From Nanobdellota archaeon (GTDB lineage Archaea; Aenigmatarchaeota; Aenigmatarchaeia; QMZP01), in contig JAHIRU010000074.1 of the NCBI GenBank assembly GCA_018818465.1, forward strand, positions 1 to 35,146: 35,146 nt of DNA, read 5' to 3'. Below, one piece after another: positions 312 to 35,146 of this stretch. A program made the translations under genes and the position numbers. How positions within the stretch are numbered: position 1 is the stretch's first letter; every line of letters begins with the position of its first letter. The notes below the pieces were generated by a model. It did not search any database. It was not told where the DNA came from and saw only the letters and a list, made by a program, of their open reading frames with translations.

Positions 312-1709
312 ATGAAAATATTATTCGTCTATCCAAATCTAATGCGAGAAGAATACATACCTCTAGGTTTAGCTTCGATAGCAGCATATGTCAAAGAACA
401 TGACCATGAAACATTCCTCATGGATTACACGTGGGGCGGAACAGCCAAAGACTGCATAAATATGGCGGAGAAAGTAAAACCAGACGTGGTCGGCTTCTCT
501 TTACGTAGTGGAGAATTTAATTTTTCATTATCAATTGCAAAAGAACTGAAAAGAAGACATCCAAATATTCTAATATTGTTTGGTGGAATACATCCAACAG
601 TTGATCCTGAAGGTACGATAAAACAGGATTGTGTTGATGCAATAATTCAAGGCGAAGGCGAACATGCTCTTGTAGAGCTTCTAAACAAATTGAAAGAAAA
701 GAAAGATTTCTCTAAAATCAAAAATCTTTGGACCAAAAAAGATGGAAAAATATTTAGGAATCCTGTAAGATCTCTTATAGAAGACTTGGATAAGCTTCCA
801 TTTCCAGACAGAGAGCTGTTTGGCTTTAAACGATATCTTGATGCAAGATCAGGAACAGCTGATATAATGGCTGGCAGAGGATGCCCTTTCCAATGCACCT
901 ATTGTATTAATCATATTTCTCAGAAGATGTACAAAGATAAAGGCACGTATACAAGAATGCGTTCTCCAGAAAATGTAATAAAAGAATTGCAGGAACTTCG
1001 CAAAAAATATAAAATAAATTTTGTTGCATTCGAGGATGATACTTTCACTTATTCAAAGGATTGGATGCGCAGATTCTCAAAGCTTTATGTTAAGGAAATA
1101 GCTTTGCCATGCAGCTGCAATGCGCGGCCAGAAACAATGGATGATGAGATGGCAAAGATGTTAAGTGAAATGGGCTGTACAACATTGAATATGGGAATAG
1201 AATCAGGCAATGAAAAAATCCGTCGCGAGGTCTTGAAAAGATTCAACACAAATGAACAGATAATTAAAGCTTTCCAGGCTGCAAACAATCATGGATTGAA
1301 AACATATTCTTACAATATGGTTGGCCTTCCATACGAAACAGAAAAAGAGATGTGGGAAACCGTGCATCTTAACAGGCGTGCAAAACCAACTGTTGTTGAT
1401 GCTTCTATTTTCCAGCCTTATCCAGGTACAGAGTTACAATCGTTATGTGAAAAGAATGGCTGGATAATGGATATGTCAACTCTTCCTTTTTCACATAAAT
1501 TCATATCAATAATGAAATATCCGAATGTTTCCAACAAAGAAATCAAATATTGGAAACGCATGTTCCGTTTCCGTGTCCTTCGGAAAACCAACATAAGAAA
1601 AGCGCTGGCATTACTTGTACTAGATTGGAATTATGAATCCTTCATCAAAAACAGAGACAAAATCCCAAGTTTCGCCAAGGCGATGTTATACAAATTATGG
1701 AGATTTTAG
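312..1709 (+). CDS. B12-binding-domain radical SAM protein (subfamily A, rSAM-A1)
   Basis: 465 aa. The N-terminal cobalamin-type Rossmann domain shows PLGLASIAAYV, VVGFSL, LFGGIHPT and QGEGEHA. The radical SAM core has CxxxCxxC = CPFQCTYC (Cys codons at 882-884, 894-896, 903-905) and a GIESGNE motif. Confidence 0.9.
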   Translation: MKILFVYPNLMREEYIPLGLASIAAYVKEHDHETFLMDYTWGGTAKDCINMAEKVKPDVVGFSLRSGEFNFSLSIAKELKRRHPNILILFGGIHPTVDPEGTIKQDCVDAIIQGEGEHALVELLNKLKEKKDFSKIKNLWTKKDGKIFRNPVRSLIEDLDKLPFPDRELFGFKRYLDARSGTADIMAGRGCPFQCTYCINHISQKMYKDKGTYTRMRSPENVIKELQELRKKYKINFVAFEDDTFTYSKDWMRRFSKLYVKEIALPCSCNARPETMDDEMAKMLSEMGCTTLNMGIESGNEKIRREVLKRFNTNEQIIKAFQAANNHGLKTYSYNMVGLPYETEKEMWETVHLNRRAKPTVVDASIFQPYPGTELQSLCEKNGWIMDMSTLPFSHKFISIMKYPNVSNKEIKYWKRMFRFRVLRKTNIRKALALLVLDWNYESFIKNRDKIPSFAKAMLYKLWRF

Positions 1710-1712
1710 AAT

Positions 1713-1728
1713 ATTCAAAATATTGAAT
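1713..1728 (+). terminator. short hairpin (ATTCAA-aata-TTGAAT) plus T-run after rSAM-A1
   Basis: A 6-bp inverted repeat begins 4 nt after the stop at 1707-1709 and is followed by caattttt. It can also be read as a tandem 9-mer, aatattcaa/aatattgaa. Confidence 0.25.
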
Positions 1729-1732
1729 CAAT

Positions 1733-1740
1733 TTTTATAG
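1733..1740 (+). promoter_or_regulatory. TATA-like box ~26 nt upstream of the 1762 ATG (leaderless-type)
   Basis: tttttata is followed by 21 nt with no SD and then ATG. AT-rich background, so chance occurrence is possible. Confidence 0.35.
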
Positions 1741-1761
1741 TTTGCATGTGTATGCTTCATT

Positions 1762-2049: not shown

Positions 2050-2050
2050 A
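2041..2050 (+). promoter_or_regulatory. TATA-like box ~25 nt upstream of the Wzx ATG
   Basis: tatttttaaa overlaps the stop of the 95-aa ORF. No SD lies before ATG 2071. Confidence 0.3.
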
Positions 2051-2070
2051 CCCATCACACAAATTTAACT

Positions 2071-3357
2071 ATGAACTTTGTGATGGTATTGTTTTTGTGG
2101 TTCTACCGCAAATTTTTTGGAGAACCAAACGAACGTGTAGAGAGGTTCATAAAGAACCTAGGTTACTTTGCTATAGGTTTTATTATAGCAAAAGTTTTTT
2201 CCTTAGGCTTTCAGATATATGCTGGACGGGTGTTAGGTCCTGCGCTCTATGGCGATTTATCGCTTATTATTGCATTATCTGGACTTTTTTTCATACCAAT
2301 GCTCTTTGGCATTGATACAGCAATGGTAAAGTATCTTTCAAGTGAACGCAGGGAGAAAAAGCGGATAATAAGCACAGGAATACCAATGATAGCGATTTTT
2401 ACTATTCTGTCGTTTGTTGTATTGTGGTTGCTTGGTGATTTCATAGCTCCTTTCTTTTCAGTTAGCAGTGAAATATTCTTTCTAGGAATTGCTTTGGCTC
2501 TAGGCTATACTATTTGGATAACTTTCAAGGACACTTCCCAAGGGCTTCTTCAAATAAAGAAAAATGCTCTAATGGAAATAATCTGGGCTTTCAGCTCATT
2601 TGCAATAATGTTTGTTGCGTTTTTGCTTTACGGAGCAGGAATGTTCTATGCGTTCCTAGCACTTTTCATTGCCTACATTATTTCATGCTTTGTGATGCTG
2701 CCTGAAATCATACGAAACATGAGAAAAAAATACATAGAAAGTCTCTGGGCAAAACGACTTTTAAGATATGGTGTTTTCAGCATACTTGTAATGGTTTCAG
2801 CTGCAGTATTGATAAACATGGACAAAATATTCATTAAAATATTTTTAGACTCTGAAGCTGTTGGTATATACAAAGCATATTCATTAATGACTACAATGGT
2901 AACTTTATCATTATTAACAATATTTGCAACAGTCTTCTTTCCAGAATCATCAATGAATGAAAACAAAAGAGGCATTTTGAAAAAACTCTGGAAAACCTTC
3001 AAGTTCCTGCCGATATACTATTTTGGCATGCTAGCTGTTCAGTACGTAGTTATCCTATTGTACGGTTATCCAATTAACTTTGTTTACCTGTTAATATTCC
3101 CTTTAGCTGCATGTGTAATGGTGCCATTCACAATGCACAACTGGTTCGCTGCATCAATTGGGCAGAGTGGAATAAAGTTATCTTCATATGCAATACTCTC
3201 TGCAGCGATAATTAACATATCATTGAATATCTATTTGATACCAATGTTTGGTATTACAGGAGCTGTAACATCCACGATAATAGCTTATTTTGTACCTAAT
3301 ATTGCGCTCATGCACAAACTCAACAATGTTTTAAAAACCTTACCTTCAATTGTCTAG
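2071..3357 (+). CDS. Wzx-like oligosaccharide/polysaccharide flippase (MOP superfamily)
   Basis: 428 aa and hydrophobic throughout, with roughly 12 helices. The N-terminal pattern FIKNLGYFAIGFIIAKVFSLGFQIYAGRVLGPALYGDLSL is typical of polysaccharide biosynthesis (Wzx) proteins. Confidence 0.75.
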   Translation: MNFVMVLFLWFYRKFFGEPNERVERFIKNLGYFAIGFIIAKVFSLGFQIYAGRVLGPALYGDLSLIIALSGLFFIPMLFGIDTAMVKYLSSERREKKRIISTGIPMIAIFTILSFVVLWLLGDFIAPFFSVSSEIFFLGIALALGYTIWITFKDTSQGLLQIKKNALMEIIWAFSSFAIMFVAFLLYGAGMFYAFLALFIAYIISCFVMLPEIIRNMRKKYIESLWAKRLLRYGVFSILVMVSAAVLINMDKIFIKIFLDSEAVGIYKAYSLMTTMVTLSLLTIFATVFFPESSMNENKRGILKKLWKTFKFLPIYYFGMLAVQYVVILLYGYPINFVYLLIFPLAACVMVPFTMHNWFAASIGQSGIKLSSYAILSAAIINISLNIYLIPMFGITGAVTSTIIAYFVPNIALMHKLNNVLKTLPSIV

Positions 3358-3358
3358 T

Positions 3359-4243
3359 ATGAAAATCCTAATCACAGGCGGATCTGGTTTTGTTGGTAAA
3401 CACCTAATTAACAAACTAAAAGAAGATTCTGAGAATGAAATTTATGCATTGGATATAGTTGATCCTCAAATAAAAGGTGTTGAATATGTTAATGCTAGCA
3501 TTCTTGATTATGAAGCCATCAAAAACGTGTTGAAAGATCTTAATATTGATATAATTTACCATTTAGCTGCGCAGATATCACTTCCATTCTCTGTTGAGAA
3601 TCCATTAAAGGATTTTGAGCTCAATGTTCAAGGCACTGTGAACGTACTTGAAGCATGCAGAGAATTTAAAATCAAGAAGATAGTGTTCATATCTACAGCA
3701 GCTGTGTATGGTATACCCACAGAAAACCCTGTTTCTGAGGATGCCCCTAAGAGGCCTAGCACACCCTATGGAATGAGCAAGCTTTCAGCAGAAAGCTATG
3801 TACAGCTGTACCACAAGCTCTATGGGCTAACATATACGATTTTAAGGTTCTTTAACCTCTACGGACCTAGGGGGAAAGGGGTAGTTCCAATTTTCGTGAG
3901 TAGAGCCATGAATAAAGATAGTTTAACATTAGTTGGTTCTGGTGATCAAATAAGGGATTTTTTATATGTGGATGATGCTGTGAATGCCTTACATATGGCT
4001 TTGAAAGGTTTAGATAATAATGATTTCAATGTAGGTTTCGGAAAAGAAACCACAATAAAGCAGGTAGCTGAAGAAGTGAACAAGCAAATAAGCGTGGAAA
4101 TAAGCTACAAAGAGCAGGAAACAAAAGAGGATTTATATCCTATAGCCAATATAGAAAAGATAAAATCAAAAGGGTTTGAACCTAAAATAAATTTGGAAGA
4201 AGGAATAAAGAGGATTATTGAATATGGACAAGCCAGCAATTGA
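3359..4243 (+). CDS. NAD-dependent sugar epimerase/dehydratase (extended SDR, GalE/WbpP-like)
   Basis: Shows MKILITGGSGFVG (GxxGxxG), STAAVYG and the catalytic YGMSK (YxxxK). The track starts at a TTG at 3350. ATG at 3359, 1 nt after the upstream stop, is the more likely start. Confidence 0.85.
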   Translation: MKILITGGSGFVGKHLINKLKEDSENEIYALDIVDPQIKGVEYVNASILDYEAIKNVLKDLNIDIIYHLAAQISLPFSVENPLKDFELNVQGTVNVLEACREFKIKKIVFISTAAVYGIPTENPVSEDAPKRPSTPYGMSKLSAESYVQLYHKLYGLTYTILRFFNLYGPRGKGVVPIFVSRAMNKDSLTLVGSGDQIRDFLYVDDAVNALHMALKGLDNNDFNVGFGKETTIKQVAEEVNKQISVEISYKEQETKEDLYPIANIEKIKSKGFEPKINLEEGIKRIIEYGQASN

Positions 4244-5411
4244 GGGCGGAGAACCGATAAGAAACGAATTTTTACCATTTGGTAAACCAACCATTGGAGA
4301 AGAAGAGATAAATGAAATGGTAGATACATTAAAATCTGGCTGGCTCTCGATGGGACCTAAGACAATCAAATTTGAAGAAGCTTTCAAAGAATACGTTGGT
4401 GCAGATTATGCAATCTCATGCAATTCCTGCACAATGGCGCTTTTCCTTTCTCTGTACAGTCTTGGCATAAAGCCAGGCGACGAAGTTATATTGCCAACAA
4501 CAACTTTTGCATCAGCTGCTAATGTTATTGTTCATTTAGGCGCAAAGCCTGTTTTTGCTGATGTGACTCGAGATACATACAACATTGATCCCGATAAGAT
4601 TGAAGAAAAAATCACAGACAAAACAAAGGCTATCATGCCAATGCACCACTCGGGACACTCTGCTGATATGGATAGAATTCTAGAAATTGCACAGAAGCAT
4701 AATCTTTCTGTTATTGAAGATGCTGCGCATGGAGTAGGTTCTGAATACAAAGGAAAAAAAATAGGTTCCATTTCAGACGCTACATGTTTTTCATTTTATG
4801 CAACAAAAACCATGACAACAGGCGAAGGCGGTATGATAACAACAAATAATGAAGAGCTTGCAAACAAACTAAGAACACTTCGCCTTCATGGAATAAGCTC
4901 TGATGCATGGAAGAGATATTCTGACAAGGGTTCATGGTATTATGAAGTAATGGATGCAGGATTCAAAGCAAACATGACTGACATGCAGGCAGCGCTTGGA
5001 TTGCATCAATTAAAAAAATTAGATGGTTTCATAGAAACTCGTCAAAAAAACGCAGAGCTTTACACAAAACTTCTTTCTGATGTTCCTGGAATAAAAACAC
5101 CAACTGTTAAAGATGATATAAAACACTCTTGGTACATCTACACAATTCTGATTGATGGCCTGAAAATAAACAGGGATGAAGTAATCAAAGCCCTTAGAGC
5201 AGAAAACATTGGTACAAGCGTACATTTCATACCACTGCATCTGCAGCCATTTTTCCAAAAAACATATGGTTATCAAAAAGGAGATTTTCCAAACGCGGAG
5301 TACGTTTATGATAGAATGATATCTCTGCCTTTCTTCTCGCATATGACAGAAAAAGATATAGAAGATGCATGCAGCGCAATCAAGAGGATAGTAAACTATT
5401 ATAAAGCCTAG
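4224..5411 (+). CDS. DegT/DnrJ/EryC1/StrS-family PLP-dependent sugar aminotransferase
   Basis: N-terminus PAIEGGEPIR...FLPFGKPTIGEEE, then EDAAHG, and FSFYATKTMTTGEGG containing the Schiff-base Lys. The track start at 4218 is TTG, so I prefer ATG at 4224. The 5' end overlaps the 3' end of the epimerase gene. Confidence 0.88.
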   Translation: MDKPAIEGGEPIRNEFLPFGKPTIGEEEINEMVDTLKSGWLSMGPKTIKFEEAFKEYVGADYAISCNSCTMALFLSLYSLGIKPGDEVILPTTTFASAANVIVHLGAKPVFADVTRDTYNIDPDKIEEKITDKTKAIMPMHHSGHSADMDRILEIAQKHNLSVIEDAAHGVGSEYKGKKIGSISDATCFSFYATKTMTTGEGGMITTNNEELANKLRTLRLHGISSDAWKRYSDKGSWYYEVMDAGFKANMTDMQAALGLHQLKKLDGFIETRQKNAELYTKLLSDVPGIKTPTVKDDIKHSWYIYTILIDGLKINRDEVIKALRAENIGTSVHFIPLHLQPFFQKTYGYQKGDFPNAEYVYDRMISLPFFSHMTEKDIEDACSAIKRIVNYYKA

Positions 5412-5427
5412 TTTTGGAAAACACAAT

Positions 5428-6324
5428 ATGAAGAAAAAATACCTAACATCTAAAATTGCATCCCTGTCTCCGATAAACTCTTTGCGTAGAGGAATCTATA
5501 AGAGGGCTGGTTATAAAATAGGAAAAAATGTGAGCATAGCCAGAAACGTAAAAATTCTAGCAAAGGAACTAGAAATTGGAGACAATGCTAGAATAGCGGA
5601 TGGTGTTTTCATCAGCAGCTTAAGAAAAGTAAAAATTGGTGAATTCACAGAAATTTCTCAGAATGTTATAATCGATGGTGATAACGAACTTGAAATTGGT
5701 GACAATTGTTTCATAGGTACAGGATATCATATCAATGTTCGTGACAAAGTTACACTAGAAGACAGCGTAGCTTTAGGTGGTTCGGGTGGACAAATCTGGA
5801 CTCACAGCACATGGCCTGAAGAGATAGATGGTCACCAGATAAACAAGATATCAAGTGTTCATATTGGAAAAAATTCTTGGATAGGAACAAAGGCTATTAT
5901 TCATCCAGGAGTTAAAATAGGACAGAATTCTATAATAGGTTCAAATTCTCTTGTAACGACAGACATACCAGAAAACACCCTCGCTTTTGGCAATCCAGCA
6001 ACGCCAATTAAAAAAGTAAGCGAAATGAAAAAAGATCTAAAGGACTGGGAAAAAGAAGACATACTTATGAATCTTGTTAAGAGATTTATTGATACCTATG
6101 GCGGACAGTATCAAAAAACAGAAATTGGAATAATGATAAAAGATAGAAATGAAACAGCAATCATAAGCATGAAAAAAATTGAACCAGAAGAGATAGCAAA
6201 ATTTGATAGCAAGACAGCTTATTTTGATATCGAGCGCAAGCGCTGCTCAAAGAAAAACATAAAATTAGAACGCAACTTCAGGCGATTTGCAAACTATTAT
6301 TCTGCACGGTTCAAGTCGGAATAG
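5428..6324 (+). CDS. hexapeptide-repeat (LbH) acyltransferase with a ~100-aa C-terminal extension
   Basis: Repeated [LIV]-G-x-x-x-x hexapeptides are present (IGKNVSI, IGDNARI, IGEFTEI, IGDNCFI, IGKNSWIG, IGQNSIIGSNS). The residues after about 195 have no recognisable motif. Confidence 0.8.
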   Translation: MKKKYLTSKIASLSPINSLRRGIYKRAGYKIGKNVSIARNVKILAKELEIGDNARIADGVFISSLRKVKIGEFTEISQNVIIDGDNELEIGDNCFIGTGYHINVRDKVTLEDSVALGGSGGQIWTHSTWPEEIDGHQINKISSVHIGKNSWIGTKAIIHPGVKIGQNSIIGSNSLVTTDIPENTLAFGNPATPIKKVSEMKKDLKDWEKEDILMNLVKRFIDTYGGQYQKTEIGIMIKDRNETAIISMKKIEPEEIAKFDSKTAYFDIERKRCSKKNIKLERNFRRFANYYSARFKSE

Positions 6325-6326
6325 TT

Positions 6327-7016: not shown

Positions 7017-7037
7017 ATGAATAGCATAATTTAATTC

Positions 7038-15391: not shown

Positions 15392-15399
15392 TGATAAAA

Positions 15400-16650: not shown

Positions 16651-16651
16651 A

Positions 16652-16660
16652 CATTTAAAG
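16652..16660 (+). promoter_or_regulatory. TATA-like box ~25 nt upstream of the rSAM-A3 ATG (possible internal promoter)
   Basis: catttaaag sits in the 30-nt gap after the CE4 stop. No SD. Confidence 0.3.
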
Positions 16661-16680
16661 ATTTTCTTTTAACTTAAACT

Positions 16681-24048: not shown

Positions 24049-24053
24049 ACCTC
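24049..24053 (-). promoter_or_regulatory. Shine-Dalgarno GAGGT for the second DegT gene
   Basis: The minus strand reads TAGAGGTTATATG. The stop of rSAM-B3 overlaps the SD. Confidence 0.4.
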
Positions 24054-28228: not shown

Positions 28229-28247
28229 TAAGCTATTAATTAAAGTG

Positions 28248-29576: not shown

Positions 29577-29586
29577 GAAGAATAAA

Positions 29587-30504
29587 ATGAATAAGAAAAA
29601 CTGGATTCAGATTATTGTCGGTGTTATAATACTGGCTGTTTTTCTTAAATTAATAAATCTGGCAGATTCGCTACACATCGTTTCGCAGGCGATATGGCCA
29701 ATTTTTGTTATAGCAATGCTGACTTCAGTAGTAACCCAGGTATTAAGAGGTTTAAGATTTTACCATATCTCAAGAAGCATAAACGTTGATACAGGAATAA
29801 AGAAAAGCATTCTAGTCCAATTTATGACAAGCTTGGCTGGCATAGCAACGCCAGCCAAAATCGGGGAAGGGGGAAAGATATTGTTTTTCAAAAACAAAAA
29901 CAAACTGACGTTTTCGTTCATCCTGGAAAAAATAGCGGACTTCTCATTGCAATTCCTTATTGGATTTTTAGCCATATTCACGTTCCAAATTTATGTCGAT
30001 CTTTTCTATTTTGTATTGGTGCTATTCATAATCGGAATAATAGCGCTTTTCAAGATAGATAAAATATTGAATTTTGTGCTCAGAAAAAACGAGTTTGAGA
30101 AGGGATGGTTTTTCAATATATTGAAAGGCATAAACAAAAAAAGTTTTTTAATTTTCTCTGTTCTGACATTCCTTTTATGGTTTAACATAAACCTTTCTGT
30201 GTGGGTTTACGCTTTGTCGCTTGGCCTGGTTTTGGATATGTTTTTGCTGTTCCAGATATTCACAGTATCAAACCTTATGGGGACAATTTCAGGGACACCT
30301 GGTGGGATTGGATCCACGCAAATAGTCTTTACTTTCATGATGGTGACCTTTATGGGAGTTTCAAGCTCTCTTGCAGGAGCTGTTGCCATAATTTCTGTAA
30401 TAGGAATATATATCATATATACAATACTAACATTGATTGGATTTTTATTATACAGAAGATTTTTTAAAAAACAGGATTCAGCTCTTCCTGGCAACAATAA
30501 ATAG
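29587..30504 (+). CDS. UPF0104 / MprF-type flippase-like domain membrane protein (c)
   Basis: 305 aa and polytopic. Motifs ATPAKIGEGGK and GTPGGIGSTQ. Confidence 0.68.
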   Translation: MNKKNWIQIIVGVIILAVFLKLINLADSLHIVSQAIWPIFVIAMLTSVVTQVLRGLRFYHISRSINVDTGIKKSILVQFMTSLAGIATPAKIGEGGKILFFKNKNKLTFSFILEKIADFSLQFLIGFLAIFTFQIYVDLFYFVLVLFIIGIIALFKIDKILNFVLRKNEFEKGWFFNILKGINKKSFLIFSVLTFLLWFNINLSVWVYALSLGLVLDMFLLFQIFTVSNLMGTISGTPGGIGSTQIVFTFMMVTFMGVSSSLAGAVAIISVIGIYIIYTILTLIGFLLYRRFFKKQDSALPGNNK

Positions 30505-31119
30505 GTTTTTTTGAAGCATCTTATTCTTGAATAATTTGTCCATTCTGGTCTTGTAGAATATCTTGGCCAAAAAATTAAAAACTGCAACGAATCCCAGGTT
30601 TAGTTTTTTCAGTTCAACAATCTCAAACCCTTCTTTTATTAGCAGGTCTTTTATCCTCTTTTCACTGAAAGACTGGCAGTGTCCCCATTTGTGGAATCTG
30701 GATCCACAGTCAGGACAGGTAACAGTCGATGCTTTCAGATTTTCATCATAGTTTGTCGTGAACACAGCATAACAGTCTGGCTTCAATACCCTGTTTATCT
30801 CTTTCAGGCATTTTTCAAGATCCTGGTCGTTCAGGTGCTCTATTAACTCTGTGCAGAACACAGTATCGAATGCATGATTCTCAAACTGTAAATTTGTGCA
30901 GTCACCTTTTATGACATTACCACCCTTTGGCACAAGGTCTATTGCGGTTGCGTTCACTTTTTTTGCCAGTGCGCCGCTGCCTGCGCCCACATCCAAAATC
31001 CTTTTTCCTATATACTTCCTTGACATCCTTATGACTACATTAGAAACGAGATCTCCACTGAATTCTTCATTATAATCTGACCAGAACCTTTCCTGATCAT
31101 TTTCATGAAATTCCTTCAT
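30478..31119 (-). CDS. class I SAM-dependent methyltransferase with an embedded Cys/His knuckle
   Basis: 213 aa. Motif I is ILDVGAGSGALA. CPDCGSRFHKWGHC is inserted after the core beta-strand VFTT. The 3' end overlaps the convergent UPF0104 c gene by 27 nt. Confidence 0.82.
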   Translation of the reverse strand: MKEFHENDQERFWSDYNEEFSGDLVSNVVIRMSRKYIGKRILDVGAGSGALAKKVNATAIDLVPKGGNVIKGDCTNLQFENHAFDTVFCTELIEHLNDQDLEKCLKEINRVLKPDCYAVFTTNYDENLKASTVTCPDCGSRFHKWGHCQSFSEKRIKDLLIKEGFEIVELKKLNLGFVAVFNFLAKIFYKTRMDKLFKNKMLQKNLFIVARKS

Positions 31120-31205
31120 TTTATCACTATTGGTTTTATATTAAGGATTAATATAAAACTTTTATTATTAATTATTCGCTACATGTTGTTTATAAAGGGG
31201 ATAAT

Positions 31206-32309
31206 ATGCACATATTGATGATAAATCACGAATTCCCCCCTCTTGGAGGAGGCGGAGGAAATGCAAATTATTATATAGCCAGAGAACTTGTGAAACTGGG
31301 GCACAGTGTTGACATAGTTACATCAGGTTTTTCAGGCCTAAAAAGCGAAACAATCAATGGTTTTAAAGTTCATAGAATAAAAACAAAAAGAAAACATGAA
31401 ACTCACGCAACAACATTAGAAATGTTAAGCTTTGTTAAAAATTCCCGCAAATATTGTAAAAAGTTGATGAAAAATAAAAAATATGATATTATTCAATGTT
31501 TCTTTACTCTTCCTGCGGGATTAACAGGATTTCTCCTAACAAAAAAATTCAAAGTTCCCATGGTCATAAGGATGGGCGGATCAGACGTGCCTGGGTATGA
31601 CCCATATCGTTTCAAGCTTCTTTACAAGCTTCTAATACCATTATACAAAAAAGTATGGAGGCGTGCAGACTGTCTTGTAGTCAACAGCCAAAAATTGAAA
31701 GATCTTCTCTTGAAAAGCAAGCAGATGAAAGTTGATATAATATACAATGGTGCTGATTCAGAAGAGCTAAAAGCCAACAGAAAATCAGACGGTAAAACAA
31801 TAATATGTATATCCCGTCTTGTCAAGCGAAAAGGAATAGATTATCTTTTGAGAGCTCTAAAGGATAGAAAGGATTTCCATCTGATTATCATAGGAGACGG
31901 CGAAGAGAGACAAAACTTAGAAAACCTTGCTAATAAATTAGGAATAAACAGCAGAACAGAGTTCATAGGTGCAGTTGAACATAACGGTGTTATAAAATAT
32001 CTAAACAAAGCAGATATATTCGTTCTTCCGTCTTTTGCTGAAGGAATGTCCAACGCACTTTTAGAAGCTATAGCCAACGGACTTCCGGTTATTGTAACAG
32101 ATGTTGGCGGATCAAAAGAGCTTGTGAAAAATAACGGTGTTATAATTCAGCCAGGAAACGAAGAACAGCTCAAAGACGCAATTGAAAAACTCCTCTCAAA
32201 CGAGAAGCTAAGAAAGCAGATGTCAAAAGAAAGCCTGGAAATTGCAAAAAAATTCACATGGCAGAATATAGCAAAAGAATATGAAAACCTTTACAGGGGA
32301 TTGATATAG
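31206..32309 (+). CDS. GT4-family (GT-B fold) glycosyltransferase
   Basis: 367 aa. Shows HEFPPLGGGGGNANYY and the E-x7-E motif EGMSNALLEAIANGLPVIVTDVGG. Confidence 0.85.
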   Translation: MHILMINHEFPPLGGGGGNANYYIARELVKLGHSVDIVTSGFSGLKSETINGFKVHRIKTKRKHETHATTLEMLSFVKNSRKYCKKLMKNKKYDIIQCFFTLPAGLTGFLLTKKFKVPMVIRMGGSDVPGYDPYRFKLLYKLLIPLYKKVWRRADCLVVNSQKLKDLLLKSKQMKVDIIYNGADSEELKANRKSDGKTIICISRLVKRKGIDYLLRALKDRKDFHLIIIGDGEERQNLENLANKLGINSRTEFIGAVEHNGVIKYLNKADIFVLPSFAEGMSNALLEAIANGLPVIVTDVGGSKELVKNNGVIIQPGNEEQLKDAIEKLLSNEKLRKQMSKESLEIAKKFTWQNIAKEYENLYRGLI

Positions 32310-32310
32310 T

Positions 32311-34086
32311 ATGTGTGGAATAATAGGATTCGCTGGATTCATGGACAGAGTACTTTTGAAGAACATGGCAGATGTAATAAGGCATCGCGGACCAGACGAT
32401 CATGGTTATTTTTTTGATAAAAACATCTCTTTAGGCGCAAGACGTCTATCCATTATAGACATCAAAGGCAGCAAACAGCCAATTTACAATGAAAACAAAG
32501 ACATTGTTCTCGTTTTCAATGGTGAAATTTACAACTTCCAGAAGCTCCGTGAGGAGCTTCATCAATTGGGACACAATTTTTCAACAGACGGTGATGGTGA
32601 AGTTATTGTTCATTTATACGAACAGTATGGTGAAGAGTGCGTAACAAAGCTTAATGGAATGTTTGCATTCGCAATCTGGGATGCAAGAAAGAAAAAACTT
32701 TTCATAGCACGTGATCGCTTAGGAATTAAGCCATTGTATTACACTCAGATAGGAAACAGGTTCCTGTTTGGATCTGAGATAAAAAGCATATTGCAGTACA
32801 GGGGATACAAGCCTGACACAGACAGAAACGCATTAAGTGATTATCTAACATTTAGATACGTTCCAGGACCACTGACGATGTTTAAAAACATCTTCAAGCT
32901 TCTTCCATGCCACACGCTTACATATCAAGATGGGAAAGTCGAAACAAAAAAATATTGGTATTTTGCTTTCAATTCCACAAACAAAAGCGAAGATTTCTAT
33001 GTAAAAACACTCAAAAATCTTCTTGAAGATTCAATCAAATCAAGACTAATCAGCGAAGTTCCTCTAGGAGCTTACTTGTCAGGAGGTCTTGACTCAAGTT
33101 TTGTTGTCGGTCTTATGTCAAAGATTTCACAAGAACCAATCAACACATTCACTGTAACTTTTGATGACATAGAATTCAATGAAGCTCCTTATGCAAAAAG
33201 TATTGCAGAGCATTTTAACACAAATCACAGATCGCTTGAGGTGAAACAAAAGAGCATAAACATTCTTCCAAAAGTTATATATCACATGGACGAACCTGTC
33301 TCAGATCCTGCAACAATTCCTACTTACATGATGGCAGAGCTGACAAAGAAGCATGTCACAGTCGTCCTGACAGGAGAGGGGTCTGATGAGCTTTTCGGAG
33401 GTTATCCACAATATCGTGCCGCAATGATAGATAAAAAGTTAGGGCCTTTCAGAAAGATCATACCAAAGCTTACAAAAAATGATTTGATGAAAAGATTCGA
33501 TCAGGATTATACAGACTGGATTTCGATCTTTACAGAAAAAGAAAAGCAAGAACTTCTTAAAGAAAAACCAGAAAAAAATAACACTGTTATACAAAGGCCT
33601 TATGATTTAAATCAGCTTCTCTATTTCGATATAAAGCAATGGCTTCCTGATGATCTTCTCACAAAAGTAGACAAGACAACAATGGCTCATTCTGTCGAAG
33701 CGCGTGTGCCTTTTCTTGACCACATAATGGTTGAGTTTGCAGGAACAGTACCGCCAAAATATAAGACAGGCATGCGCCAGGAAAAGATTATAATCCGCAA
33801 AGCAATGCAAGGAATCGTGCCAAAGGAAACAATTAACAGAAAGAAGCAGGGATTCCATGTACCGATAGAGAAATGGTTCCAGGGAGAGCTGAAAGAAGTC
33901 GCACAGAACATGCTATCAGAGAGTGTCATAGAGAAGCGCGGATACTTCCAATATCCGTATGTGAAATCATTGTTAAACAAGTTTGACAGCTCACCAAAGT
34001 ACTACAGCAGACAGTTATGGAATTTATTCAATTTAGAGTTGTGGCATAGAATTTTCATCGATCAAGAAAAACAAAAGAAAATTTAA
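32311..34086 (+). CDS. asparagine synthase (glutamine-hydrolysing) family amidotransferase, AsnB-like
   Basis: 591 aa. It has the N-terminal nucleophile MCGIIGF and the PP-loop SGGLDSS. It starts 1 nt after the GT4 stop. Confidence 0.88.
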   Translation: MCGIIGFAGFMDRVLLKNMADVIRHRGPDDHGYFFDKNISLGARRLSIIDIKGSKQPIYNENKDIVLVFNGEIYNFQKLREELHQLGHNFSTDGDGEVIVHLYEQYGEECVTKLNGMFAFAIWDARKKKLFIARDRLGIKPLYYTQIGNRFLFGSEIKSILQYRGYKPDTDRNALSDYLTFRYVPGPLTMFKNIFKLLPCHTLTYQDGKVETKKYWYFAFNSTNKSEDFYVKTLKNLLEDSIKSRLISEVPLGAYLSGGLDSSFVVGLMSKISQEPINTFTVTFDDIEFNEAPYAKSIAEHFNTNHRSLEVKQKSINILPKVIYHMDEPVSDPATIPTYMMAELTKKHVTVVLTGEGSDELFGGYPQYRAAMIDKKLGPFRKIIPKLTKNDLMKRFDQDYTDWISIFTEKEKQELLKEKPEKNNTVIQRPYDLNQLLYFDIKQWLPDDLLTKVDKTTMAHSVEARVPFLDHIMVEFAGTVPPKYKTGMRQEKIIIRKAMQGIVPKETINRKKQGFHVPIEKWFQGELKEVAQNMLSESVIEKRGYFQYPYVKSLLNKFDSSPKYYSRQLWNLFNLELWHRIFIDQEKQKKI

Positions 34087-34949
34087 TGATGGTCTTTGTT
34101 CTTATCAGTTGAAATTAAATCTGCAACCAGTCCTATGAATCCTATTTGCAATGCAGCGAGCAACAAGAATACAGAAAGCTCTGCGATATTATGGAAGAAT
34201 AATATGTCATGAACAAACCATGCTATTCCCAAAATGCCTACAATAGCTGCTGTAGGGATGAAGATCTTCAATGGATTGAAATACATCATCATCTTCATAA
34301 AGAGTTTATTGAAGCCGAAAAAGTCAGAAGCTTTCATCTTTGATTTTCCTTTCCTTTTTTCATAATTTATTGGAACATATTTCACATGGTAATCATTGCA
34401 TAACGATGCAAGCGTTATTGTTGATGTAAAAGAAAATCCTGAAGGATACAAATGGAAGAATCTCATTGCAAGATCCTTCTTGAAAATCCTCAAACCCGAA
34501 TTAAGATCAGGTATGTTTGTACCTGCTATATAATTTGCGAATTTTGATAAAACATATTTTGCTGGACGCCTTGAAATGGGTATAGAAACATTTTTACCTG
34601 TTCTTGCACCAACAACCATATCATAATGCTCTAGATGAGGCAAAAGATCTGGAATAGCACTTTCAGGATAGGTTCCGTCAGCGTCTGTAATCATTATCCA
34701 ATCACCTTTAGCGTTCTTTATCCCTGTCTTAAGTGCAGCACCGTAGCCTTTGTTATGAGGATGATTTAATTTATGAACAAAACTTATTTTTTCCAATATT
34801 TCAGCGGTTTTGTCTTTGGAACCGTCGTTAACAACTATGATTTCATATTTATGTTTTGTAGAATCCATTGTTTTCTTTAATCTGTTCATCACTTCTTCTA
34901 CTGCTTGCTCTTCATTGTAAGCTGGAATAACAACACTTATCATAGTCAT
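34083..34949 (-). CDS. GT2-family polyprenyl-phosphate glycosyltransferase with C-terminal TM helices (GT2 c)
   Basis: 288 aa. Shows ISVVIPAYNEE, VVNDGSKD and ITDADGTYP. The C-terminal helices are IFIPTAAIVGILGIAWFV and LSVFLLLAALQIGFIGLVADLI. Confidence 0.85.
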   Translation of the reverse strand: MTMISVVIPAYNEEQAVEEVMNRLKKTMDSTKHKYEIIVVNDGSKDKTAEILEKISFVHKLNHPHNKGYGAALKTGIKNAKGDWIMITDADGTYPESAIPDLLPHLEHYDMVVGARTGKNVSIPISRRPAKYVLSKFANYIAGTNIPDLNSGLRIFKKDLAMRFFHLYPSGFSFTSTITLASLCNDYHVKYVPINYEKRKGKSKMKASDFFGFNKLFMKMMMYFNPLKIFIPTAAIVGILGIAWFVHDILFFHNIAELSVFLLLAALQIGFIGLVADLISTDKNKDHH

Positions 34950-34968
34950 ATAGAGAATATGATTCGGG

Positions 34969-34981
34969 TTTTTATATTTAA
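34969..34981 (-). promoter_or_regulatory. TATA-like box ~26 nt upstream of the GT2 c ATG
   Basis: The minus strand reads ttaaatataaaaa. No SD before ATG at 34949. Confidence 0.35.
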
Positions 34982-35020
34982 GCTTTGTTCAAAGGTGAGC
35001 GTGACCCAATTAATATTTCG

Positions 35021-35146
35021 TTACACGTTCTGTATTACCTCAAGACCCGCATTAACCAGATCTTTAAGCTGCTTAAAATTTTTAATGCTTGCAAGCTTCT
35101 TTATAACATATTCTGGCCTCAAATAAAACTCCCTATAGGCACGCTT
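35021..35146 (-). CDS. C-terminal fragment of a seventh B12-domain radical SAM paralog (runs off the right edge)
   Basis: My reverse-complement translation gives KRAYREFYLRPEYVIKKLASIKNFKQLKDLVNAGLEVIQNV* with TAA at 35021-35023. It aligns by eye with the C-termini of the 11187 ORF (AFRSFYLRPVKMLDLLFTIKSVNELKWTIKAGFEIFKGV) and the 20435 ORF (AYRSFYLKPSYVFSVLKKIKSPEQFFRWFVAGANFLKH). Confidence 0.6.
   Translation of the reverse strand, partial: KRAYREFYLRPEYVIKKLASIKNFKQLKDLVNAGLEVIQNV

Follow-up and report, generated by a model that had tools for sequence, protein, structure and literature searches.

AprD4, a sugar dehydratase, acts on a soluble pseudodisaccharide and binds no cobalamin. HpnJ and BchE are classed among the B12-dependent radical SAM (rSAM) enzymes (PMC12931638), and both HpnJ and Cds have been proposed to contract rings on lipid-bound sugars (PMC13459092). 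HpnL belongs to the LPG_synthase_TM/AglD family (bioRxiv 10.1101/2025.07.29.667474). GacJ, which represents the DUF2304 family, is found in complex with GacI, an Und-P-GlcNAc synthase, and Rv3632, a GacJ homolog, stimulates PpgS, which makes polyprenyl-P-GalNAc (bioRxiv 10.1101/180810). Here these systems are compared with a window, i.e., the whole stretch of DNA analysed (35,146 nucleotides), from an uncultivated groundwater Nanobdellota archaeon. The window is a cell-surface glycan island with seven B12-type rSAM proteins. Seven members of a single enzyme class among ~31 genes greatly exceeds what chance would give. The density, singled out in a first-pass annotation, is nevertheless not unique as 7-8-member arrays are found in other loci.

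Results

Gene content of the window

In addition to the rSAM genes, Pfam identified three Dol-P-sugar-synthase-like GT2 glycosyltransferases, three PMT_2 GT-C glycosyltransferases, three flippase-like LPG_synthase_TM proteins, two GT4 and one Wzx, which bears out the glycosylation island recognised at first pass. There are also two DegT proteins and single copies of an epimerase/dehydratase, an acetyltransferase, a deacetylase, a FemAB-like protein and AsnB. The genes are as follows:

312-1709 (+), rSAM A1, 465 aa, CPFQCTYC (Pfam Radical_SAM 102 bits, B12-binding 83 bits)
2071-3357 (+), Wzx-type flippase (Pfam Polysacc_synt)
3350-4243 (+), NAD epimerase/dehydratase (Pfam Epimerase)
4218-5411 (+), DegT aminotransferase (Pfam DegT_DnrJ_EryC1)
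5428-6324 (+), hexapeptide acyltransferase (Pfam Hexapep)
6327-7016 (-), Asp/Glu racemase, distal in module 1 (Pfam Asp_Glu_race 118 bits)
7072-8244 (-), GT4, distal in module 1 (Pfam Glycos_transf_1/Glyco_transf_4)
8305-9681 (-), rSAM B1, 458 aa, CPFNCSYC, N-terminal GRCQ (Pfam Radical_SAM 85 bits, B12-binding 39 bits)
9678-11180 (-), module 1 GT-C, 500 aa, ~9 TM segments (Pfam PMT_2, Glyco_transf_22; hydropathy scan)
11187-12584 (-), rSAM A2, 465 aa, CPYGCIFC, canonical B12-binding domain (Pfam)
12588-13259 (-), module 1 soluble GT2, 223 aa, polyprenol-phosphate glycosyltransferase type (PDB 5mlz, NCBIfam)
13293-14246 (-), flippase-like membrane protein (LPG_synthase_TM/UPF0104), first gene of module 1 (Pfam 127 bits)
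14450-15391 (+), module 2 GT2, two C-terminal TM helices (Pfam Glycos_transf_2; TM scan)
15391-16650 (+), module 2 polysaccharide-deacetylase/DUF2334-like protein (Pfam Polysacc_deac_1, DUF2334)
16681-18192 (+), rSAM A3, 503 aa, CPFNCVFC, final gene of module 2 (Pfam)
18201-19091 (-), flippase-like LPG_synthase_TM protein, distal in module 3 (Pfam LPG_synthase_TM)
19131-20423 (-), FAD amine-oxidase/desaturase-like oxidoreductase, distal in module 3 (Pfam Amino_oxidase, NAD_binding_8)
20435-21856 (-), rSAM B2, 473 aa, CPFQCIFC, N-terminal REGRCQ (Pfam Radical_SAM 92 bits, B12-binding 35 bits)
21861-22901 (-), FemAB-like aminoacyl transferase (Pfam FemAB, Acetyltransf_6)
22891-24045 (-), DegT-family sugar aminotransferase (Pfam DegT)
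24053-25450 (-), rSAM B3, 465 aa, CPYSCVFC, without GRC motif (Pfam Radical_SAM 82 bits, B12-binding 42 bits)
25520-27262 (-), GT-C, 580 aa, ~10 TM segments, first gene of module 3 (PMT_2 56 bits, PMT 25 bits; TM scan)
27390-28196 (-), class I SAM methyltransferase, module 4 accessory (Pfam Methyltransf_23/31/11)
28245-29576 (+), module 4 GT-C (Pfam PMT_2)
29587-30504 (+), module 4 flippase-like LPG_synthase_TM protein (Pfam LPG_synthase_TM)
30478-31119 (-), second class I methyltransferase, module 4 accessory (Pfam Methyltransf_23/31/11)
31206-32309 (+), GT4 (Pfam Glycos_transf_1)
32311-34086 (+), AsnB-type glutamine amidotransferase (Pfam Asn_synthase, GATase_7)
34083-34949 (-), GT2, two C-terminal TM helices, polyprenol-phosphate glycosyltransferase type (Glycos_transf_2 123 bits; TM scan)
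35021-35146 (-), R7, the seventh rSAM, C-terminal 41 codons (translation)

TATA-like elements are present upstream of window genes. These and the taxa of the homologs point to an archaeal host, probably of DPANN type.

Judged from gene content, the window has at least three predicted polyprenol-phosphate three-component glycosylation modules, in each of which an MprF-type flippase-like protein is accompanied by a GT2 and a PMT_2 GT-C. The uncharacterised multi-step tailoring pathway proposed at first pass is supported as a prediction, except that the island appears to comprise several modules in parallel rather than a single linear pathway. Genes are tightly coupled in module 1, where the GT2 is followed by A2 after a 3-nt gap and A2 by the GT-C gene after a 6-nt gap, and the start of B1 overlaps the stop codon of the GT-C gene by 4 nt. 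The order in module 2 is GT2-deacetylase-rSAM A3, the FemAB-like and DegT genes sit between B2 and B3, and the GT2 at 34083 is directly downstream of R7. A1 is a solitary gene located 362 nt upstream of a four-gene operon (2071-6324) that probably encodes an NDP-acetamido-deoxy-sugar pathway and a repeat-unit flippase.

The GT2 at 12588-13259 lacks TM segments, has the P. furiosus Dol-P-mannose synthase (5mlz, E 1e-18) as its best PDB match, also matches ArnC, and has AglJ, PpgS and Dol-P hexose transferase as top NCBIfam matches. Top NCBIfam matches were AglJ and PpgS for the GT2 at 14450-15391, and Dol-P hexose transferase, AglJ and ArnC for the one at 34083-34949; both have a C-terminal pair of TM helices, as GtrB/ArnC-type enzymes typically do. 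The flippase-like protein at 13293-14246 scored above cutoff for TIGR00374, a flippase-like domain model (97 bits), and weakly for HpnL (27 bits). Matches of the oxidoreductase at 19131-20423 to PRK07233 (143 bits) and of the FemAB-like protein to TIGR03019, a PEP-CTERM-type FemAB (199 bits vs. a cutoff of 260), were below cutoff.

The seven rSAM proteins

The six complete rSAM ORFs reported at first pass (starting at 312, 8305, 11187, 16681, 20435 and 24053) were all recovered, and each scored above the Pfam gathering thresholds for both Radical_SAM (82-102 bits) and B12-binding (35-83 bits), as expected for the B12-type Rossmann and radical SAM domains ascribed to them. The fragment at 35021-35146 had been taken for the end of a seventh paralog, and indeed it matches the paralog C-termini, and longer contigs from this organism carry the complete gene (465 aa, L008 13816-15213(-)). 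In full-length R7 (Pfam B12-binding 77 bits, Radical_SAM 90 bits; NCBIfam HpnJ 242 bits vs. a cutoff of 577.6) the N-terminal domain is A-type and the core HpnJ-like. The CxxxCxxC motif is intact in all seven, and the six strings are identical to those first quoted. G(I/F)ESG, on the other hand, was assigned to every complete ORF but is exact in four of six only, with AIESG in A3 and GVEFG in B3. A hydropathy scan revealed TM segments in none of the seven, which are soluble proteins. Pairwise identity among the paralogs is 27-35%, and those tested (B2, A2, and A3) have nearer relatives in other phyla than inside the window; they are therefore old paralogs, as had been judged by eye.

None of the seven reached the NCBIfam equivalog cutoff of a named family, and the profile search placed no paralog inside a characterised clade. 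The best-scoring named family was HpnJ (182-263 bits vs. 577.6), which was the top match for five of seven, including A1 (187 bits); Sden_1168 reached up to 225 bits vs. a cutoff of 575. Within the loci fetched, the nearest relatives of A1 belong to 7-8-rSAM arrays (L042, L055, and L078). A2 matched BchE (208 bits) and HpnJ (202 bits) without reaching either cutoff, and A3, the B12-binding domain of which is canonical with an insertion, matched best the P-methyltransferase Sden_1168 (225 bits). HpnJ scores were 230, 263, and 236 bits for B1, B2, and B3, respectively. B1 and B3 also matched the AprD4 family (129 and 136 bits) and, among PDB sequences, AprD4 itself (6fd2; 108 bits for B1, its best match there, and 112 bits for B3). 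The AlphaFold2 model of B2 (pLDDT 91.4) had AprD4 (6fd2) as its top Foldseek match (TM 0.79-0.82), and the model of A2 (pLDDT 91) matched TsrM, AprD4, MgmA, and OxsB; such structure predictions had been suggested at first pass.

Two subfamilies had been defined by motifs, and these motifs were all found: P(L/I)GL..IAA, GGxH/GGPYAT and GEGE in A, and NPP/NPS, TSTP/TSTV, G(E/T)H and, in B1 and B2, GRCQ in B. The split is, however, confined to the N-terminal domain, where Pfam B12-binding scores are 72-83 bits in A1, A2, A3, and R7 vs. 35-42 bits in B1-B3 and domain-wise BLAST gives 77 bits within groups vs. 53 between them. The catalytic cores are unsplit (147 bits within vs. 141 between), and a whole-length NJ tree had deep-node bootstraps below 10%. 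The description as cobalamin-domain rSAMs holds for A1, A2, A3, and R7, with canonical domains; the Rossmann domain of B1, B2, and B3 is divergent and these proteins resemble sugar-acting, cobalamin-free AprD4, so that cobalamin dependence is only putative for three of the seven. Methylase models (HpnR, rSAM_ocin_1, and Sden_1168) score higher on A-type than on B-type proteins. From these profile-score trends and one structural neighbour, the A-type proteins are most likely cobalamin-dependent C-methyltransferases and B1-B3 most likely non-methylating AprD4/HpnJ-like enzymes catalysing dehydration/deoxygenation or ring rearrangement. That the best B-type profile matches, HpnJ and BchE, are counted as B12-dependent weighs against this assignment, as does the missing A/B split in the catalytic cores.

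Conservation in other genomes

B2, A2, and A3 each belong to a large family that spans archaea and bacteria and recurs in glycan loci, so the co-localisation with glycosylation genes is a conserved feature in both domains. Homologs number more than 3300 for the B2 family, 4952 for the A2 family (at most 73% identity, ~50% across archaea and bacteria), and 2667 at E<1e-30 for the A3 family, in Wzx/DegT/GT2/GT4 loci. A short same-strand GT2 is the immediate neighbour of the B2-family gene in 36 of 79 loci (~46%), compared to ~13% expected by chance (an estimate based on 0.07 GT2 genes per kb locally), and 45 of 80 loci have a GT-C gene no more than 10 kb away (GT-C calls of at least 100 bits were Pfam-validated in five of six cases). 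Examples are GT2-rSAM(-rSAM) with PMT and LPG_TM in Aenigmarchaeota, GT2-rSAM-GT2-PMT_2-PMT_2 in Brocadiia, and GT2-rSAM-MTase-GtrA-GT2 in Patescibacteria. LPG_synthase_TM is rarely found outside archaeal loci. A2- and A3-family members also occur in GT2/PMT/Wzx/GT4 loci, and one A2-family locus (L099) has no glycosylation Pfam domains. Tandems of A2-like and B2-like genes beside a GT2 recur in three loci (L014, L048, and L085), which suggests consecutive, non-redundant steps. Five loci have GT2-DUF2304-rSAM gene triplets, and in P0075 DUF2304 and rSAM are fused in one protein. A GacJ-like gene between GT2 and rSAM, together with this fusion, places the rSAM at a membrane synthase complex.

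Discussion

From the observed domain architectures, operon wiring, family-level identities and conservation of GT2/rSAM/GT-C neighbourhoods across phyla we infer a substrate, an order of steps, a use of cobalamin and a chemistry. The best explanation, which could equally well prove right or wrong, is that the rSAM proteins modify lipid-phosphate-linked sugars by radical chemistry in the cytoplasm, before these sugars are flipped and transferred. A Dol-P-mannose-synthase-like GT2 would put a sugar on lipid phosphate at the cytoplasmic face, the rSAMs would edit this lipid-linked monosaccharide, an MprF-type flippase-like protein would carry it through the membrane, and a PMT_2 GT-C would hand it to an external acceptor, e.g., an S-layer protein, glycan or lipid. 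The keto product of a B-type enzyme would be passed on to the DegT aminotransferase and the FemAB-like acyltransferase encoded alongside. The lipid-linked substrate, already proposed at first pass, is made plausible by the Dol-P-mannose synthase/AglJ/PpgS/ArnC type of the GT2s, by the GT2-GacJ-like-rSAM triplets and the DUF2304-rSAM fusion, and by the tight gene coupling (3-nt gap, 4-nt overlap). Weighing against it, GT2 adjacency is not universal, the LPG_synthase_TM proteins are only "flippase-like" and one A2-family locus has no glycosylation domains. Furthermore, A3-family and A1-type contexts resemble Wzx/GT4/NDP-sugar pathways, so that the substrate there might be an NDP-sugar or a lipid-PP-oligosaccharide; in some modules the rSAMs may act on an NDP-sugar precursor instead.

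It is also conceivable, though unlikely, that the rSAMs tailor soluble nucleotide sugars or a growing lipid-PP-oligosaccharide, as deoxy-, amino- or C-methyl-sugar enzymes in the manner of GenK/GenD1/AprD4 of aminoglycoside biosynthesis, and that GT2 adjacency reflects pathway membership only. A1 lies upstream of a Wzx-dehydratase-DegT-acetyltransferase operon, the A3-family loci L100 and L101 hold Wzx, GT4, DegT, a hexapeptide transferase and an oxidoreductase, a DegT aminotransferase is flanked by B3 and B2, the Zixibacteria rSAM array lies in a Bac_transf/Poly_export EPS locus, and the nearest solved structure to B2, AprD4, works on a soluble substrate. However, what directly adjoins and often overlaps B2- and A2-family genes is specifically a gene for a short Dol-P-sugar-synthase-type GT2, not for an NDP-sugar enzyme, and the location at a membrane synthase complex indicated by GacJ-like proteins also argues for a lipid-phosphate-linked sugar.

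Somewhat less probable still, the modules might be HpnIJKL/Cds-like cassettes for end-product glycolipid head groups, in which a GT2 would glycosylate a membrane lipid, e.g., archaeol or a tetraether, a deacetylase and an rSAM would produce a carbocyclic, cyclitol/calditol-like ether-linked head group, and the LPG_synthase_TM protein would flip the lipid or modify it further. The window does contain the families of hpnI (GT2), hpnJ (B12 rSAM), hpnK (deacetylase) and hpnL (LPG_synthase_TM/AglD), the order in module 2 is GT2-deacetylase-rSAM, HpnJ is the most frequent top match, and the ring contraction proposed for HpnJ and Cds would fit. HpnJ scores are nevertheless less than half the cutoff, the window deacetylase is of the PF01522/DUF2334 type while HpnK is YdjC-like, and the GT2s look like polyprenol-phosphate transferases. 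A GT-C in or beside each module implies that the lipid-linked sugar serves as a glycosyl donor, a role for which a carbasugar ether would be ill suited.

Modification of a peptide or protein (RiPP-like, or S-layer C-methylation) or of a polyprenol or archaeal lipid chain, with a regulatory or historical reason for the location in the island, is very improbable: NCBIfam scores for ApyD (117-171 bits), rSAM_ocin_1 (up to 132 bits) and the ladderane lipid rSAM (84-149 bits) are moderate but all far under cutoff, precursor-peptide, protease/transporter and lipid-synthesis genes are absent from the window gene table, and the partners conserved across phyla are glycosylation genes. Public pipelines label homologs "anaerobic Mg-protoporphyrin IX monomethyl ester cyclase" or "YgiQ family", but an identity as clustered housekeeping enzymes (BchE-type porphyrin cyclases or tRNA/rRNA methylthiotransferases) is effectively refuted by sub-threshold scores (BchE 136-216 bits vs. 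a cutoff of 481; MiaB/RimO at most 67 bits vs. 251) and gene context, with no tetrapyrrole genes nearby and close homologs in lineages such as DPANN archaea and Patescibacteria that are not known to be phototrophic.

We found no description in the literature of an rSAM within a three-component glycosylation system. The recurrent pairing of rSAM and lipid-linked-sugar genes in many uncultivated archaea and bacteria suggests an undescribed chemical editing of lipid-linked sugars. Editing at this stage has precedents, as ArnD acts on Und-P-Ara4FN and DprE1/E2 on decaprenyl-P-ribose, in both cases before flipping.

The seven radical SAM proteins

The first-pass annotation had described six complete ORFs and a C-terminal fragment of B12-type radical SAM (rSAM) proteins, and all were recovered here. 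Each complete ORF carries the Pfam B12-binding and Radical_SAM domains, and the fragment is completed on longer contigs as R7, a protein of 465 aa in which both domains are present.

312-1709, plus strand, A1, B12-binding and Radical_SAM domains
8305-9681, minus strand, B1, B12-binding and Radical_SAM domains
11187-12584, minus strand, A2, B12-binding and Radical_SAM domains
16681-18192, plus strand, A3, B12-binding and Radical_SAM domains
20435-21856, minus strand, B2, B12-binding and Radical_SAM domains
24053-25450, minus strand, B3, B12-binding and Radical_SAM domains
35021-35146, minus strand, R7 fragment, 41 codons, aligning with the C-termini of its paralogs

The minus strand thus carries four of the six complete genes as well as the fragment. 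The CxxxCxxC motif is found in all seven proteins and the six strings quoted earlier match exactly, while the G(I/F)ESG motif ascribed to every complete copy is exact in only four of six, A3 reading AIESG and B3 GVEFG. Scores against PF04055 are 82-102 bits for all seven (gathering cutoff 29.5). For the N-terminal domain (PF02310, cutoff 32.1) A1, A2, A3 and R7 score 83, 72, 77 and 77 bits, respectively, and the B-type proteins pass only marginally (B1 39, B2 35, B3 42 bits). Judged by sequence all seven clearly belong to the B12-type rSAM superfamily; a TM scan found transmembrane segments in none of them.

No NCBIfam equivalog cutoff was approached by any of the seven. HpnJ (TIGR03471), the top-scoring named family for five of them, gave 182-263 bits across all seven (cutoff 577.6), BchE (TIGR02026) 136-216 bits (cutoff 481), the AprD4 family diol dehydratases (NF033070) 79-136 bits (cutoff 500), and the Sden_1168 P-methyltransferase 225 bits for A3 (cutoff 575). 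In the PDB, AprD4 is the best sequence match for B1, B2, B3, R7, A1, and A3. B1-B3 match it at 104-112 bits and do not detect OxsB; the A-type proteins and R7 additionally detect QCMT/MgmA, TokK, OxsB, and CysS, via the B12 domain. A model of B2 (pLDDT 91.4) has AprD4 (6FD2) as closest solved structure (Foldseek E 4e-30, TM 0.79-0.82), a resemblance that is one of fold and not of family membership. The model of A2 (pLDDT 91.0) matched TsrM, AprD4, and MgmA, all at E 1e-23 to 1e-25, as well as OxsB, and such similar values for both kinds of enzyme do not discriminate between a methylase and an AprD4-like protein. AprD4, a 1,2-diol dehydratase acting on a sugar, has an N-terminal Rossmann-like domain that binds no cobalamin (PMC12931638). 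It is the nearest structure to the B type and shares its fold, and the term cobalamin-dependent is thus unproven for all seven, above all for B1-B3.

Within the B2 family an N-terminal NPP...REGRC motif (B2 residues 7-21) is invariant; B1 shares it and B3 and all A-type copies lack it. The AF2 model of B2 has low confidence over this stretch (pLDDT 57-72). An auxiliary cluster in the B2 family was considered and rejected, as only two conserved Cys lie outside CxxxCxxC.

Subfamilies and age of the paralogs

The proposed division into subfamilies A and B stands in part: the motifs are present and the N-terminal Rossmann domain splits, whereas the catalytic cores do not. Among 160 related rSAMs the combinations 'GG.H + GEGE' (42 proteins) and 'xG.H + GEPE' (59 proteins) never mix, and N-terminal domain BLAST gave 77 bits within groups against 53 between them. 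With the catalytic cores the corresponding values were 147 and 141 bits; A2, R7, B1, B2, and B3 formed the tighter set with A1 and A3 as outliers. A neighbor-joining tree of whole-length sequences (160 rSAMs, 100 bootstraps) separated A1-A3 from B1 and B2 with bootstrap values below 10%, and as its deep nodes stayed below 10% it was too weak to confirm or reject the split, which is based instead on domain-wise BLAST, Pfam domain scores, and motif covariation. R7 is a hybrid of an A-type N-terminal domain and an HpnJ-like core.

The paralogs had been taken to be old and not recent duplicates, in agreement with pairwise identities of 27-35% in the window and with each paralog tested (B2, A2, A3) having far closer relatives in other lineages than inside the window. 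Homologs of B2 number more than 3300; the best 120 are full-length with 37-45% identity and belong to Brocadiia, Aenigmarchaeota, Patescibacteria, Omnitrophota, Planctomycetota, and others, and the range is widened by genome loci of B2 relatives in Nitrospirae, Nanoarchaeota, Pacearchaeota, and Acidobacteriota. For A2 there are 4952 homologs with identity of up to 73%, and about 50% identity is kept across Thermoplasmatales, Micrarchaeota, Woesearchaeota, Nanoarchaeia, Aminicenantes, and CSSED10-310. The 2667 homologs of A3 at E<1e-30 show 44-52% identity and come from Bathyarchaeota, Argoarchaeum, Omnitrophica, Patescibacteria, and Deltaproteobacteria. The closer relatives elsewhere indicate that the window is a gathering of members of several ancient, widespread, and uncharacterised families rather than a recent local expansion.

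Glycosylation modules

The genes around the rSAMs, annotated with Pfam and NCBIfam, fall into operon-like modules, among whose components are Dol-P-sugar-synthase-like transferases (GT2), PMT_2 transferases (GT-C), and flippase-like LPG_synthase_TM proteins.

Module 0, plus strand, A1 alone; downstream Wzx, dehydratase/epimerase, DegT, hexapeptide acyltransferase
Module 1, 14246 to 6327, minus strand, LPG_synthase_TM, soluble GT2, A2, PMT_2 GT-C, B1, GT4, Asp/Glu racemase
Module 2, 14450 to 18192, plus strand, GT2 with two C-terminal TM helices, polysaccharide-deacetylase/DUF2334-like protein, A3
Module 3, 27262 to 18201, minus strand, PMT_2 GT-C, B3, DegT, FemAB-like protein, B2, FAD oxidoreductase, flippase-like protein
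Module 4, plus strand, PMT_2 GT-C and flippase-like protein, flanked by two class I methyltransferases
After Module 4, GT4 and AsnB, then, on the minus strand, R7 and a GT2 bearing two TM helices

Spacing in Module 1 is tight, with gaps of 3 nt and 6 nt and a 4-nt overlap between GT-C and B1. The three GT2s match the P. furiosus Dol-P-mannose synthase 5mlz (E 1e-18), ArnC, AglJ, PpgS, and a Dol-P hexose transferase, and from these matches they are predicted to be of the polyprenol-monophosphate glycosyltransferase type; their NCBIfam scores are all below equivalog cutoffs (for AglJ, 134 bits vs. 325) and two of the three have two C-terminal TM helices. The three PMT_2 GT-Cs score above the gathering threshold, have 8-10 TM segments (the TM scan gave 5-10 for GT-C and flippase-like proteins together), and one of them lies in a GT2-containing operon. 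All three LPG_synthase_TM proteins pass TIGR00374, 'flippase-like domain' (97 bits vs. a cutoff of 43), and are putative flippases of polyprenyl-P-sugars.

Four genes of the island and its extension form a set:

6327-7016, minus strand, Asp/Glu racemase
21861-22901, minus strand, FemAB-like transferase
32311-34086, plus strand, AsnB amidotransferase
15356-16672 of L008, a longer contig, UDP-glucose dehydrogenase

The FemAB-like protein scores 199 bits against TIGR03019 (PEP-CTERM-type, cutoff 260). This set is typical of bacterial exosortase-type EPS loci and is met here in what is probably an archaeon; read from sequence, it suggests that the sugars carry amino acids, which may be D-amino acids, or that uronic acids are amidated.

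Host and extent of the island

The window holds about 30 tightly packed genes in 35,146 bp with a GC content of 30-38%. Its sequence is also found in several public deep-groundwater metagenome assemblies (two NCBI MAG contigs, a JGI sample, and ENA contigs), the ENA contigs being up to 49.7 kb long and running beyond the right end of the window; the groundwater from which the contigs originate is neutral. Operon-first genes have TATA-like boxes 25-35 nt before the ATG, and Shine-Dalgarno sites are few. Such elements, e.g., TTTATATA and AAATTTATAAAG, stand 25-35 nt upstream of starts that lack a Shine-Dalgarno sequence, and SD-like GGAGG/GGTGA sites occur only before some internal operon genes. 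TATA-like elements were noted in the regions upstream of the following positions:

312, plus strand
6327-7016, minus strand
12588, minus strand
25520, minus strand
30478, minus strand
34083, minus strand

This layout is the archaeal pattern of leaderless or short-leader transcripts. With the TATA-like boxes, the few Shine-Dalgarno sites, and the taxonomy of the nearest A2 homologs taken together, the host is probably a DPANN-type archaeon. An RNA-element search of the window found no cobalamin riboswitch, no other Rfam element, and no tRNA.

At the left end, a gene start on the minus strand (2-205, the N-terminal 68 codons) runs off the window. The partial protein, MRKKKNKPISFKIKPFLTMPVLAIIAILIILGC..., begins with a basic stretch, continues with a hydrophobic helix, and is therefore probably secreted or membrane-bound. 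At 30478-30504 the 3' ends of a flippase-like gene (plus strand) and a methyltransferase gene (minus strand) overlap convergently by 27 nt. Beyond the window, the glycan functions stop after the UDP-glucose dehydrogenase. The region that follows (L008 16680-21104) encodes a 457-aa protein with a faint Pec_lyase match, six small ORFs without Pfam match, and an N6_N4 methyltransferase/Mrr-type (restriction-modification-type) gene, so that the glycan island ends some 2-3 kb past the window.

Conservation of the neighborhood

The adjacency of rSAM and glycosylation genes, suggested from the window, recurs in B2-, A2-, and A3-family loci across archaea and bacteria. Three loci of B2 relatives illustrate this:

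Aenigmarchaeota: PMT, GT2, rSAM, rSAM, LPG_TM, AsnB, hexapeptide transferase, MTase, GT4, rSAM, GT4, Wzx
Brocadiia: GT2, rSAM, epimerase, rSAM, GT2, rSAM-SPASM, PMT_2, PMT_2
Patescibacteria: GT2, rSAM, MTase, CDP-OH transferase, GtrA, GT2

The first nearly reproduces the window in syntenic miniature, and in the third GtrA replaces LPG_TM as flippase candidate. Adjacency was counted over 80 genome loci, spread over many phyla, that carry B2 relatives. A short GT2 was the immediate same-strand neighbor in 36 of 79 loci, against a chance expectation of about 13% (our own estimate; local GT2 density 0.07 per kb). HMMs built from only the proteins of the window lacked the sensitivity to detect GT-C and LPG_TM, and iterated HMMs were used instead; matches to GT-C below about 35 bits are false or uncertain (none of four was PMT_2 by Pfam), and counts were therefore restricted to matches of at least 100 bits, of which five of six sampled were confirmed by Pfam (four PMT_2, one STT3). 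Such a GT-C was found within 10 kb in 45 of the 80 loci. LPG_synthase_TM was rejected as a general partner of the B2 family, as the HMMs detected it among the B2-relative loci only in two archaeal ones (L018, L023).

In five loci (Nanoarchaeia, Nanoarchaeota, two Pacearchaeota, Omnitrophota) a GacJ-like DUF2304 gene lies between GT2 and rSAM:

L037, 2380-2709
L040, 1518-1856
L046, 9648-9995
L074, 9418-9780
L047, 494-853

In one homolog, P0075, DUF2304 appears to be fused to the N-terminus of a B2-family rSAM, the source being a single 3-kb contig. GacJ is a small membrane partner complexed with the Und-P-GlcNAc synthase GacI, and its homolog Rv3632 stimulates PpgS (bioRxiv 10.1101/180810).

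Loci of the A2 and A3 families are likewise glycan loci, carrying for example GT2/PMT/MTase/rSAM, Wzx/DegT/hexapeptide transferase/GT2, or GT4/Wzx with four B12-rSAMs; in one A2-family locus Pfam found no glycosylation domains. Beside the A2 orthologue on a Thermoplasmatales chromosome (L097 7649-10178) a GT2 and a second B12-rSAM occur as fragments of 102, 149, and 76 aa, which from their sequence may be a pseudogenised module. A 17.5-kb Patescibacteria contig (L101), from the same groundwater project as the window, has four B12-type rSAMs and one SPASM rSAM in a 12-kb stretch, interspersed with GT4 genes, Wzx, a methyltransferase, and an epimerase, and forms a further dense rSAM glycan island, this one in a CPR bacterium.

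The rSAM density of the window is not unique. Six to eight B12-type rSAMs lie within 10-14 kb in L036, L042, L055, L078, and L082 (Zixibacteria, LCP-89, and other or unclassified MAGs) as tandem arrays of conserved order, typically five A2-like, one A1-like, one B2-like, and one A1-like, then GT2 and GT2-Bac_transf; the L055 array is situated inside an EPS export locus (GT9, epimerase, GT2-Bac_transf, Poly_export). A GT2 gene in tandem with A2-like and B2-like genes is likewise met repeatedly (L014, L048, L085). These tandems argue that A2-like and B2-like proteins perform different, probably consecutive, steps.

Proposed function

Soluble rSAMs with intact cluster motifs are co-operonic with GT2s, flippase-like proteins, and GT-Cs, and this wiring is kept across domains. 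Our leading reading, to which we give even chances, is that the rSAMs tailor a lipid-phosphate-linked monosaccharide at the cytoplasmic face of the membrane, prior to flipping. Such tailoring would be analogous to two precedents, ArnD, which acts on Und-P-Ara4FN, and DprE1/E2, whose substrate is decaprenyl-P-ribose. The A-type enzymes would probably C-methylate, and the B-type enzymes would probably perform AprD4/HpnJ-like chemistry without methylation. For Module 3 it is tempting to speculate that a keto-sugar from B3 or B2 is transaminated by DegT and then acylated by the FemAB-like protein. A more general reading, which we advance tentatively and at somewhat less than even odds, is that B12-type rSAMs are a widespread fourth component of polyprenol-phosphate glycosylation, docked on the GT2 (and GacJ) synthase complex, where their radical chemistry would alter the monosaccharide on its lipid phosphate (by C-methylation, deoxygenation, epimerisation, or ring rearrangement) before flipping and GT-C transfer.

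A less probable reading, to which we would give roughly one chance among several, is that the rSAMs act on NDP-sugars or lipid-PP-oligosaccharides, and it fits A1 and the A3 family best. Synthesis of cyclitol-type glycolipid head groups, as by HpnIJKL or Cds, is rather unlikely: the window has the same four families as hpnI/J/K/L, but it also has GT-C genes, and its HpnJ scores are sub-threshold. That the substrates are not sugars at all is very unlikely, and housekeeping roles are extremely improbable, BchE and MiaB/RimO being ruled out by scores below threshold.

Cobalamin-type rSAMs are among the largest pools of uncharacterised enzymes, and to our knowledge only a handful (GenK/GenD1, AprD4, HpnJ, Cds) act on sugars or lipid head groups. 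Three large families, each with thousands of members and 40-50% identity across archaea and bacteria, here gain a testable substrate hypothesis with defined partner genes, the hypothesised substrate being the product of the adjacent Dol-P-sugar-synthase-like GT2. Tailoring of lipid-phosphate-linked sugars by rSAMs would, if true, add a new type of step to the textbook three-component scheme and predict new surface sugar structures on DPANN archaea and on CPR bacteria, both of which live by attachment to other cells. If the rSAMs are indeed a fourth component, DPANN, Patescibacteria, and many uncultivated phyla would bear surface sugars that no nucleotide-sugar pathway makes, and stacked modules and arrays of 7-8 enzymes would generate combinatorial glycan diversity. 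The hosts are expected to scavenge cobalamin, and confirmation would raise the question why presumed scavengers devote about a quarter of the island genes to such enzymes. Even if the substrates are NDP-sugars, the island is a source of new sugar-tailoring catalysts. The chemistry is putative, the hypothesis is concrete and testable and covers thousands of proteins, and the window is one of many such loci.

Comparison with known systems

In the three-component, GtrABC-type systems of extracytoplasmic glycosylation (ArnC/ArnD/ArnEF/ArnT, GacI/GacJ/GacK/GacL, PpgS/Rv3632/Rv3779, and the archaeal Dol-P-sugar pathways of AglJ/AglD type) a polyprenol-phosphate-type GT2, a flippase candidate, and a GT-C are encoded together, as in the window. 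The likeness extends to a GacJ-like DUF2304 partner, found in Gac/Ppg-type systems and in window-related loci, and to ArnD, which edits the lipid-linked sugar before flipping and parallels the GT2 and deacetylase-like gene of Module 2. Unlike these systems the window has one or two B12-type rSAM genes between or beside the components, its flippase candidate is of the MprF/AglD-type LPG_synthase_TM family and not GtrA/SMR-type, and several modules are stacked in one island.

The hopanoid cassette HpnI-HpnJ-HpnK(-HpnL) converts BHT via BHT-GlcNAc and BHT-GlcN to BHT cyclitol ether. Cassette and window share four clustered families, i.e., GT2, B12-type rSAM, deacetylase, and LPG_synthase_TM-family protein, and overlap with the hopanoid context is limited to the GT2, deacetylase, and LPG_TM families. 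On the other hand the window rSAMs score less than half the HpnJ cutoff, Pfam found no squalene-hopene cyclase or HpnH domain in the window or its extension, the host is probably archaeal, the cassette has no GT-C transferases whereas the window does, and the window deacetylase is presumably from a different family. The cassette and the proposed role have in common that a radical SAM enzyme works on a sugar bound to a lipid (PMC13459092). Cds (Saci_1489) of Sulfolobus is an archaeal radical SAM protein proposed to ring-contract a lipid-bound hexose, with homologs mainly in acidophiles (PMC13459092); by description only, this distribution differs from the neutral deep groundwater of the window.

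At the protein level AprD4 is the closest structure to B2 and acts on a sugar, but its identity to the window rSAMs is only 21-23%, no AprD3-like reductase partner was identified, and its pathway leads to an aminoglycoside (apramycin), while that of the window would lead to a surface glycan. The class B rSAM methyltransferases (GenK/GenD1, Fom3, HpnP/HpnR, MgmA/QCMT, TokK, TsrM, Sden_1168) have the same architecture of N-terminal B12-binding Rossmann and radical SAM domains, but the window rSAMs fall below every equivalog cutoff and methyl transfer is putative. Our literature search found no description of rSAMs in polyprenyl-phosphate or three-component glycosylation; two 2026 reviews, including PMC13459092, describe HpnJ and Cds as still unreconstituted and do not mention rSAM glycosylation modules. 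The conserved insertion of rSAMs into glycosylation modules is previously undescribed, the enzyme superfamily and the modules themselves being conventional. The closest known counterparts are three-component glycosylation at the system level, HpnIJKL at the cassette level and, at the protein level, AprD4 by structure and HpnJ by profile.
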